From the IMG/VR virus record IMGVR_UViG_2529292977_000021: DNA of 5,875 nucleotides. The stretch is one strand, 5' to 3'. The notes below the pieces were generated by a model that saw only the letters and a list, made by a program, of their open reading frames with translations, did no database searches and was not told the origin of the DNA. The stretch is from a virus (lineage: Duplodnaviria > Heunggongvirae > Uroviricota > Caudoviricetes). The position numbers and the translations under genes were made by a program. This document shows, one piece after another, positions 3,963 to 5,353 of the stretch (position 1 is its first letter; the number at the start of each line of letters is the position of its first letter).

Positions 3963-4059
3963 ACCTTCCTCGGTTTAGTGTTTTTTTGCGAGTTTAGTGT
4001 TTAATAAACCATTAAGTCAAGTATTTGCTTGTTTAGTGATTACTAAAGATAATTACCAC
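3963..4059. promoter_or_regulatory. Divergent promoter/operator region (OR-like) between the cro-like gene and the repressor
   Basis: Three TTTAGTG copies (3974-3980, 3993-3999, 4032-4038) at 19 and 39 bp spacing. Palindromes GTTTAaTAAAC (3999-4009) and TTTAGTgattACTAAA (4032-4047). Leftward promoter candidate: -35 TTGACT (revcomp of 4015-4020), 18-bp spacer, -10 TAAACT (revcomp of 3991-3996). Rightward candidate: TTGCTT (4025-4030), 17 bp, GATAAT (4048-4053), ending 7 nt before ATG 4060. Confidence 0.6.
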
Positions 4060-4431
4060 ATGCAAAAAAAAGAAATTCGCCGTTTACGTCTCAAGGAGTG
4101 GTTTAAAGATAAAACTCTGCCACCCAAAGAGAAGAGCTACCTATCTCAACTAATGAGTGGGAGAGCCTCGTTTGGAGAAAAGGCTGCCAGAAGAATAGAG
4201 CAAACATACGGGATGCCGGAAGGGTATCTGGATGCGGAATACGCAGAACAACCGGGGGGTTCTCCACCACATGCAGGGTTAACGTCTAATCAACTGGAAT
4301 TATTGCAGATTTTTTCAGCCTTCCCTGAGGATGAGCAACGCCAGATAATCAGCGAGTTAAAGCAGAAAAAAGAATCAATGGAAGATCTCATAGCGAGATG
4401 GATTGCGGCGCAAAAATGCCGCCGCGCCTGA
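4060..4431 (+). CDS. paaR2: HTH (XRE/CI-type) regulator, PaaR2-like; probably the prophage repressor (RacR position), lacking an S24 peptidase domain
   Basis: 123 aa from ATG 4060; the ORF track starts at GTG 3997, which falls inside the operator region. HTH-like segment LKEWFKDK...SYLSQLMSGRASFGEKAARRIEQTYGMPEGYLD. First gene of a three-gene unit with the antitoxin and ParE. No SD, and a -10-like hexamer ends 7 nt upstream, so the mRNA may be leaderless. The paralogue number (1 vs 2) is not certain. Confidence 0.75.
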   Translation: MQKKEIRRLRLKEWFKDKTLPPKEKSYLSQLMSGRASFGEKAARRIEQTYGMPEGYLDAEYAEQPGGSPPHAGLTSNQLELLQIFSAFPEDEQRQIISELKQKKESMEDLIARWIAAQKCRRA

Positions 4432-4451
4432 GTTATAAAACCGGAGGAAAC

Positions 4452-4643
4452 ATGAATAGAGCCCTTTCACCAATGGTTTCTGAATTTGAAACCATTGAAC
4501 AAGAAAACAGTTACAACGAATGGCTGCGTGCGAAAGTAGCAACGAGCCTTGCAGATCCGCGCCCAGCAATTCCCCATGACGAAGTTGAGCGCAGAATGGC
4601 AGAACGCTTTGCTAAGATGCGCAAGGAACGGAGCAAGCAGTAA
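4452..4643 (+). CDS. paaA2: PaaA2-type antitoxin, partner of the ParE toxin
   Basis: 63 aa (MNRALSPMVSEFETIEQENSYNEWLRAKVATSLADPRPAIPHDEVERRMAERFAKMRKERSKQ); size and character match my recollection of PaaA2 from the PaaR-PaaA-ParE systems of E. coli O157:H7. GGAGG at 4443-4447 with a 4-nt spacer before ATG 4452. Stop TAA (4641-4643) is 1 nt before the toxin ATG. Confidence 0.8.
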   Translation: MNRALSPMVSEFETIEQENSYNEWLRAKVATSLADPRPAIPHDEVERRMAERFAKMRKERSKQ

Positions 4644-4644
4644 A

Positions 4645-4923
4645 ATGTTACCCGTGTTATGGCTTGAAAGCGCAGATACCGACCTAGATGATATAACTAG
4701 TTATATTGCTCGTTTCGACATAGATGCGGCTGAACGCTTATGGCAGCGATTAAGGGGTTGTGTGCTGCCGTTATCCGAACATCCGTATTTATACCCACCA
4801 AGCGACAGAGTACCTGGCTTGCGTGAGATTGTAGCCCACCCTAACTATATAATTCTATACCGCGTAACAACATCAAGCGTTGAAGTAGTAAACGTGATCC
4901 ACGCAAGACGCCAGTTTCCCTAA
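4645..4923 (+). CDS. parE2: ParE-family toxin (RelE/ParE superfamily), ParE2-like
   Basis: 92 aa from ATG 4645 (ORF track starts at an upstream in-frame ATG at 4549 that overlaps the antitoxin). Typical ParE features: W near the N-terminus, GLREIVAHPNYIILYRV, and C-terminal VVNVIHARRQ. Tightly coupled to the antitoxin stop. Confidence 0.85.
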   Translation: MLPVLWLESADTDLDDITSYIARFDIDAAERLWQRLRGCVLPLSEHPYLYPPSDRVPGLREIVAHPNYIILYRVTTSSVEVVNVIHARRQFP

Positions 4924-4940
4924 CTTTCACTACCAATAGA

Positions 4941-5005
4941 AACATAACAACCGCAACGACTTTATCAAAAGCGTTGTGTTTGTTATGTCCCGCGGTTTAG
5001 TTTTT
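4941..5005 (+). terminator. Imperfect hairpin followed by a T-rich tract downstream of parE; candidate terminator of the repressor-TA operon
   Basis: Arms aacataacaaccgcaacg (4941-4958) and cgttgtgtttgttatgt (4972-4988), about 15 of 17 positions pairing, 13-nt loop, then gtttagttttt (4995-5005). The stem is AT-rich and the T-tract is not immediately adjacent, so this is not a classic intrinsic terminator. Confidence 0.3.
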
Positions 5006-5035
5006 ACTTGACTTAAGTTTAATGTTTATTAAACT
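4993..5035 (+). promoter_or_regulatory. OL/PL-like operator-promoter: rightward promoter candidate sharing motifs with the OR-like region
   Basis: -35 TTGACT (5008-5013), 16-bp spacer, -10 TAAACT (5030-5035). Palindrome GTTTAAT-gttt-ATTAAAC (5017-5034). Shares TTGACTTAA (5008-5016 vs revcomp of 4012-4020), GTTTATTAAAC (5024-5034 vs revcomp of 3999-4009) and CGGTTTAGT (4993-5001 vs 3971-3979) with the OR-like region. Confidence 0.4.
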
Positions 5036-5353
5036 AAAAATACCAACCCACCCCGCCCCACAGAACGCAGGGAAATACTTCGAGTTACCCGGCAGTGGTC
5101 AGGGGTTAAGTAGCCAGCCCGAGGCGTATGAACATGACGGCAGGGTTCAACTTTAATAACTATGCAGCAGTTTTTTGTTCCGCTACCCCGGCGTTAAGGG
5201 GAAACAGAGGGTTTCTCAGTGGGCGAAGTCAAACATCAGAATGGAAGGCATCCCGGGATCGGCAAAGAAGCAGCAATGGCGCTTTATATTGACATCAGCG
5301 CCATTGCAGGACAGGTAAGAGTTATCAGAGCGGTAACTAAGCGGTATGCGCCT

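Follow-up and report, generated by a model that had tools for sequence, protein, structure and literature searches.

The 5,875-nucleotide stretch of Caudoviricetes DNA analysed here (IMG/VR record IMGVR_UViG_2529292977_000021; the whole stretch is referred to as the window in the following) very probably contains the immunity region of a lambdoid prophage of the CP-933P type, in which PaaR2 acts as the CI repressor and the toxin-antitoxin (TA) pair paaA2-parE2 is carried as operon cargo at the place that rexA and rexB occupy in phage lambda. The locus is the published paaR2-paaA2-parE2 immunity region of E. coli O157:H7-type lambdoid prophages, and its core finding is already known: the locus goes back to Hallez et al. 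(2010), as cited in PMC8630535, experiments on an identical sequence have covered the binding of operators, the repression of three promoters, the structure of the operon, bistability and post-segregational killing (Jurenas et al. 2021, PMC8630535), and paaA2-parE2 has been described as replacing rexA/rexB, and PaaR2 as replacing CI (Prolic-Kalinsek et al., PMC9986795). A TA pair that is controlled by the lysogeny switch of a phage rather than by its own antitoxin bears on the presence of such systems in prophages and on the stabilisation of immunity regions. As this was worked out in print between 2010 and 2023, the core finding brings no new biology, and the value added here is comparative. 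The present analysis contributes the identities of the genes, the anatomy of operators and promoters, and the placement of the TA pair as cargo in a family of repressors that is also found without it; more modest additions are a hybrid prophage backbone, a variant with two regulators, TA-less relatives, a hairpin at the operon end and an unannotated leader of the PL transcript.

An earlier note, made from the sequence alone, had read three plus-strand genes as one rightward unit of regulator, antitoxin and ParE toxin, and had pointed to the described PaaR-PaaA-ParE loci for comparison. This comparison bears it out, since the encoded proteins are 100% identical to the structures of PaaR2 (over residues 1-66), PaaA2 and ParE2, all of which derive from E. 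coli O157:H7. The PaaR2 structures (PDB 7NKV and 8C3K) were deposited under the name 'Phage repressor protein CI'. PaaR2 further matches PHROG 5736, 'transcriptional regulator' (6.9e-39), and its C-terminus gives a weak match to a DicA model (1.4e-6, under the curated cut-off), whereas a Pfam search (E <= 0.01) returned neither a helix-turn-helix (HTH) domain nor an S24 peptidase. Its nature as an HTH regulator is therefore deduced from the PDB identity together with the PHROG and NCBIfam matches. In PaaA2, encoded directly 5' of the toxin gene, PF21217 is the sole Pfam match. The order of the genes, with an HTH regulator first, a PaaA antitoxin second and a ParE toxin last, is that of the three-component type II TA systems of the PaaR-PaaA-ParE kind. 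They are separated by only 20 nucleotides (paaR2-paaA2) and 1 nucleotide (paaA2-parE2), a scan found no terminator-like site between them, and their status as an operon, the toxicity of ParE and its neutralisation by PaaA have been published for the identical proteins (PMC8630535).

On both sides, this unit is flanked by an outward-facing promoter within a cluster of operators (Table 1), as the earlier note had proposed; the span of 3963-5040 that it assigned to the region opens with the first base past the start codon of ydaS and closes where the PL-like promoter ends. Four copies of the half-site GTTTAGT are present in the 5875 bases, all on the plus strand and each in one of the two operator regions, against a chance expectation of 0.47; this number was reached in 0 of 200 shuffles. 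When one mismatch is allowed in GTTTAGTR, 11 of 13 matches fall inside 3941-4048 or 4995-5034. The hexamers of the PR-like and PL-like promoters are identical, and an alignment of both regions extends over the core of the promoter. The window thus has the traits of a lambdoid immunity region, namely a repressor gene and a cro-like gene that diverge over repeated operators with two promoters, as well as a second operator cluster (OL, the left operator) with an outward promoter beyond the repressor operon. Published data agree with this anatomy: the intergenic region (OR, the right operator) has the same length of 97 bp and contains four inverted repeats, the PaaR2 footprint covers about 78 bp of it, and start sites mapped by 5' RACE indicate that translation of paaR2 is leaderless, as for cI (PMC8630535). 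The probable, weak PRM-type promoter of the window would likewise initiate at the A of the paaR2 ATG (4060), in agreement with these start sites.

The operon may end at the hairpin that follows the parE2 stop codon and precedes OL, a candidate only, in a tIMM-like position, with a fold of -24 kcal/mol (z = -4.9; equal stability in 0 of 200 shuffles) and no immediate U-tract; the equivalent place in the related paaR1 locus is taken by a canonical intrinsic terminator. PMC8630535 does not contain the word 'terminator', and a scan of the window against Rfam (E <= 1) gave only a chance-level microRNA match on this hairpin and no known RNA family.

Table 1. Features of the window, in order of position (numbered from its first base).
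Feature	Position	Strand	Description
DnaC/IstB-like ATPase gene	647-1393	-	early-right gene of the lambdoid block
Replication initiator gene	1400-2608	-	402 amino acids; early-right gene of the lambdoid block
ydaT	3238-3663	-	CII-like activator; Pfam YdaT_toxin 1.2e-9; PHROG 163 'CII-like transcriptional activator' 4.3e-45
YdaT high-affinity operator OM (TTGATTN6AATCAA)	3653-3670	.	ydaS/ydaT junction; tied to PRE-like promoter
ydaS	3660-3962	-	Cro-like repressor, divergent from paaR2; Pfam YdaS_toxin 3.3e-12, HTH_3 6e-7; PHROG 35 'transcriptional repressor'
OR-like intergenic region ydaS-paaR2	3963-4059	.	97 bp; GTTTAGT half-sites at 3973, 3992, 4031
PR-like promoter	TTGACT 4020-4015, 18 nucleotides, TAAACT 3996-3991	-	promoter scan; points to ydaS
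Probable PRM-like promoter	-35 TTGCTT 4025-4030, -10 GATAAT 4048-4053	+	hexamers read by eye
paaR2	4060-4431	+	CI-analogous repressor, 123 amino acids; HTH N-terminal domain, DicA-like C-terminal oligomerisation region
paaA2	4452-4643	+	antitoxin without DNA-binding domain; PDB 3ZBE/5CW7 identity 100%; Pfam PF21217 1e-19
parE2	4645-4923	+	ParE-family toxin; PDB 5CW7_B identity 100%; Pfam PF05016 (ParE_toxin) 1.9e-16
Hairpin between parE2 stop codon and OL	4942-4988	+	inverted repeat, 22-nucleotide arms, 3-nucleotide loop; candidate operon end
OL/PL-like region	4993-5040	+	half-sites 4995 (GTTTAGT; GTTTAGTT), 5017 (GTTTAATG), near-matches about 5024-5034
PL-like promoter	TTGACT 5008-5013, 16 nucleotides, TAAACT 5030-5035	+	promoter scan; points away from parE2
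Conserved PL-transcript leader	5040-5204	+	about 165 nucleotides just 3' of the PL-like promoter

In the circuit that best accounts for this region, PaaR2 takes the role of lambda CI. It binds the GTTTAGT-type repeats in the 97-bp OR and in OL, which lie about 1 kb apart, and thereby silences both PR, from which ydaS-ydaT and the replication genes are expressed, and PL, which serves early-left genes of the ydfC/dicB type. It also regulates its own leaderless PRM transcript, which runs on into paaA2-parE2; as these two genes lie between the repressor gene and OL/PL on that transcript, the TA pair is made within the repressor operon. YdaS competes for the PaaR2 operators like Cro, and YdaT activates a PRE-like promoter like CII, to yield a bistable switch. 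Finally, the labile PaaA2 neutralises ParE2, and loss of the cassette kills or arrests the cell, a form of addiction by which the cassette is stabilised. Looping between OL and OR over the operon, termination of the PRM transcript at the hairpin and a selective benefit of the whole arrangement are further, conjectural parts of this scheme.

Much of the circuit has been established in published experiments on the identical sequence. PaaR2 represses PR933P and PL933P, the latter about 100-fold, as YdaS does too, while PRM933P is activated at low and repressed at high PaaR2 levels; YdaS binds the region bound by PaaR2 in the manner of Cro, YdaT activates the PRE-like promoter in the manner of CII, and the resulting switch is bistable and heritable (PMC8630535). 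The function of YdaT has been demonstrated (PMC8630535, PMC9986795) and its operator motif defined by footprinting (PMC9986795). That motif has a single exact match in the window (TTGATTTTCATGAATCAA; chance expectation 0.02), and the window thus also has a CII-type activator gene 3' of a cro-like gene, with its own site at a PRE-like promoter. The suggestion of the earlier note that one protein might be both TA regulator and prophage repressor is therefore upheld, because PaaR2 represses PR933P and PL933P and autoregulates PRM933P (PMC8630535). A role in prophage retention, which the earlier note had also considered, is likewise supported as addiction, given that the whole region stabilises an unstable plasmid via post-segregational killing (PMC8630535).

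Some of the evidence weighs against the reading of PaaR2 as a lysogeny repressor that holds the TA pair in its operon. As CP-933P is cryptic, superinfection immunity conferred by PaaR2 is a presumed property. In the plasmid reporter experiments, the ydaST-on state prevailed among the cells, the TA genes were transcribed in both states of the switch and ParE2 activity was detected in neither (PMC8630535). The coupling between TA expression and lysogeny is hence quantitative rather than all-or-none. Furthermore, PaaR2 lacks the S24 domain, which implies a route of induction unlike that of lambda, and the prophage of the window itself is known from 5.9 kb only.

The missing S24 (LexA-like) autopeptidase, otherwise a trait of lambdoid repressors, also speaks against a release of ParE activity upon SOS induction, which the earlier note had suggested checking. 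PaaR2 was described as lacking an autocleavage (peptidase) motif and as unresponsive to mitomycin C (PMC8630535), and because of both properties, an SOS-triggered release of ParE2 through cleavage of the repressor is unlikely. PaaR2 is CI-like in function, yet it is a repressor of the DicA/RacR kind and not a member of the CI/LexA family.

In its original description, PaaR was the third component of a TA system (PMC8630535), and one could accordingly regard PaaR2 as a dedicated TA regulator, the DNA-binding half of a split antitoxin, with the real immunity repressor encoded elsewhere and a merely coincidental likeness to cI-rex. This view is largely refuted, and we consider it barely credible. 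The earlier note had named beforehand two findings that would speak for such a view, a regulator that binds its own promoter only and a separate CI-like repressor elsewhere in the prophage. Instead, PaaR2 footprints OR and acts on the PR-like and PL-like promoters beyond its own, and the annotation of one O157:H7 copy of CP-933P shows no second repressor-like gene over the 28 kb between portal and int, nor is one annotated in the part of phage Evi that was inspected. The window itself has no second regulator either, and leaves just the short gap between paaR2 and paaA2.

Comparison with other loci also bears on this question. We grouped 80 IMG/VR loci that encode relatives of PaaR2 by identity and by their neighbours. 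Where the relatives are 97-100% identical, paaA-parE follows directly downstream wherever the contig extends far enough. By contrast, 15 loci (L083-L097) with relatives of 47-52% identity encode neither PaaA nor ParE in the 3 kb downstream. In all 15 of these the repressor gene faces a ydaS-like neighbour, and 14 show weak YdaT-like matches; L087 seemingly has two repressor/cro-like modules in tandem. Because these loci lack PaaA and ParE, PaaR2 belongs to a family of prophage repressors that exists without TA, which counts against its being the half of a split antitoxin only. From such sequence comparisons, the TA pair appears as a cargo in the 'rex position' of this repressor family.

A third group, class B (n = 11 loci, L070-L080; 71-74% identity), speaks for the separability of the two roles, and to that extent for PaaR2 as a mere TA regulator. 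In these loci, an additional gene lies between the repressor and the TA genes (e.g. L073:3373-3832), which encodes a protein with 58% full-length identity to PaaR1. The roles of 'immunity repressor' and 'TA regulator' are here in two genes, a PaaR2-like and a PaaR1-like one. Relative to class B, the window shows a clean absence of about 460 bp, which corresponds to the extra regulator gene. Among 5426 complete E. coli genomes, the four-gene form is found in 17, compared to 593 with one place that covers at least 80% of window positions 3600-5350. It is conceivable, if rather doubtful, that the single-regulator cassette descends from a four-gene ancestor, composed of a PaaR2-type repressor, a PaaR1-like TA regulator, paaA and parE, by clean loss of the dedicated regulator, and that the TA pair then serves viable phages such as Evi for 'immunity-cassette addiction' and/or Rex-like exclusion. 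If true, the lysogeny repressor was left as the sole controller of the toxin operon, and loss or replacement of the immunity region would be penalised, while swaps of the whole cassette via the conserved ydaT and PL-leader flanks, of the kind that the hybrid window displays, would still be allowed.

The layout proposed by the earlier note, PL-[rexB rexA cI]-PR as in lambda, fits both the gene order and the promoter positions of the window, and the analogy to the rex position is itself in print (PMC9986795). In both systems, two cargo genes come after a leaderless repressor gene on the maintenance transcript and are located before OL/PL; both have a divergent PR with cro, a CII-type activator with PRE and an octamer-forming repressor. 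There are, however, several differences. Lambda CI has an S24 autocleavage domain and PaaR2 has none; lambda OR has three operators in place of the four inverted repeats (PMC8630535); and the cargo of lambda is an exclusion system of a sensor and an ion channel, whereas that of the window is a type II TA system. No similarity to CI, RexA or RexB was found, and the Pfam matches of the cargo proteins are to the PaaA2 and ParE families. The module thus has the position of RexAB and not its homology; paaA2-parE2 is not a member of the RexAB family, and the two are analogous in position only.

Its position and its joint transcription with the repressor could nonetheless suggest that PaaA2-ParE2 has a mainly Rex-like role, in which infection causes the loss of the labile antitoxin, ParE2 poisons the cell and the infection aborts, with addiction as a side effect. 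The degradation of PaaA2 by ClpAP and ClpXP (PMC8630535) would be compatible with such a mechanism, as would the wide distribution and conservation of the cassette (the 593 genomes mentioned above) and its retention in Evi, a viable phage. We nevertheless regard this role as unlikely: post-segregational killing has been demonstrated directly and the tested conditions gave no detectable toxin activation (PMC8630535), the defence models of PADLOC match none of PaaR2, PaaA2 and ParE2, and a search of the literature library available to us found no experiment on phage defence or abortive infection by paaA2-parE2.

Closer parallels exist among prophages. The paaR1-paaA1-parE1 locus, of the CP-933M type, shares the entire layout with the window, including ydaT, a ydaS-like gene, OR, paaR, paaA, parE, a stem-loop, OL/PL and the conserved leader. 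The PaaA proteins are 70% and the ParE proteins 67% identical, and the C-terminal parts of the PaaR proteins 42%. The two loci are, however, heteroimmune; their N-terminal HTH parts of PaaR cannot be aligned, their YdaS proteins have no detectable similarity, and the operators are of the ACAGTTTTTTATTGT type in the paaR1 locus and of the GTTTAGT type in the window. In E. coli K-12, racR-ydaS-ydaT of the Rac prophage and dicA-dicC of Qin resemble the window in their non-cleavable, DicA-like repressors. Rac also shares ydaS and ydaT as divergent partners and the conserved PL leader, which lies downstream of racR and is 87% identical to window positions 5040-5202, and Qin has a short match to the leader just 5' of ydfA. 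Since no gene is annotated between racR and the leader in Rac, nor between dicA and ydfA in Qin, the 'rex position' is empty in both.

The closest relative is the immunity region of CP-933P (Sp12) in O157:H7, with the same operators, promoters and gene order. Its DNA is base-for-base identical to window positions 3514-5613, but its replication arm is unlike the right arm of the window (3-3513, with most of ydaT and the replication genes), which is of the CP-933M type: positions 3-3674 are 99.97% identical to a CP-933M-type prophage that carries paaR1-paaA1-parE1. The paaR1 prophage next to the yccA-side genes in O157:H7 drafts corresponds to CP-933M in PMC8630535. The crossover falls inside the shared segment 3514-3674, which comprises the YdaT operator together with the 5' portion of ydaT and the final codons of ydaS. 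Judged by these alignments, the window arose by natural recombination, with a CP-933M-type replication arm joined to the immunity cassette and left arm of CP-933P. In a megablast search of the full window against complete E. coli genomes, no record covered at least 80% of it, because it is a hybrid of two O157-type prophage modules. The draft contig DADNON010000002.1 (GCA_017272795.1) matches it at 99.8%, in a prophage that adjoins ynfA/speG-side host genes, as CP-933P does in O157:H7 strain TR01; the same type of junction is found at 98.9% in four complete bovine-associated genomes.

One might also suppose that the circuit is the decaying fossil of a dead prophage, kept by TA addiction and hitch-hiking without a present regulatory role. 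CP-933P is indeed cryptic, with a frameshifted int and an exo interrupted by an insertion sequence in O157:H7, and its reported lack of response to mitomycin C (PMC8630535) would agree with this. Yet all five regulatory and TA open reading frames (ORFs) are intact, 577 E. coli records are at least 99% identical to window 3600-5350, and the regulators are active in reporter assays (PMC8630535). Moreover, the cassette is found in several prophage backbones and integration sites, for instance at tRNA-Ser/mtfA beside HK97-type head genes, or beside copD/yebY with a Rac-like recET-kilR arm. It is also present in the isolated 40-kb coliphage Evi (LR597642.1), where ydaS-paaR2-paaA2-parE2-OL occupies 20001-21381 at 98.3% identity with all ORFs intact, although parE2 is not annotated in the record; Evi has a complete complement of genes for head, tail, lysis and replication. 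A fossil is accordingly highly improbable, and we favour a functioning immunity region with the TA pair as its cargo. With its intact cassette, Evi makes superinfection immunity, the S24-less route of induction and Rex-like exclusion tractable.

The immunity and TA unit, at about 3675-5045, behaves as an exchangeable cassette between conserved flanks. On the left-arm side, the flank is the leader of the PL transcript. It is 95.6% identical to that of the heteroimmune paaR1 prophage and occurs in 3758 of 5426 complete E. coli genomes (85-100% identity), including Rac of K-12; in 29 of the 30 records listed, no annotated feature lies under the match. We rejected the possibility that it is a structured RNA (put-/nut-like), as its fold is no more stable than that of shuffled sequences (z = +1.0), and a small ORF within it (MNMTAGFNF...) is frameshifted between relatives. 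The leader looks like the left homology or recombination flank of immunity cassettes.

Outside the immunity region, the gene of the replication initiator contains five exact copies of AAGCCCCTT with 11-nucleotide spacing, arranged in two clusters (2027-2057 and 2294-2313). Beside them is an array of the hexamer TCCTGT (1974-2017), which encodes a Q/E-rich linker. The AAGCCCCTT repeats are iteron-like and may mark a phage origin within an O-type gene. Further along, an ORF on the plus strand (2540-3031; NCBIfam 'ECs1072 family phage-associated protein', 105 bits, cut-off 70) overlaps one on the minus strand (2715-3275; PHROG 8304, 5.9e-120), and one of the two is probably a shadow ORF. Finally, a minus-strand gene at 5354-5560 (NCBIfam ECs_2282 family) encodes a zinc ribbon of 68 amino acids with a CxxC...CxxC pattern, antisense to the PL transcript, and overlaps a plus-strand ORF of 118 amino acids (5219-5575). 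It stands where related prophages have ydfA/ydfB, and its transcription is possibly convergent with that from PL.

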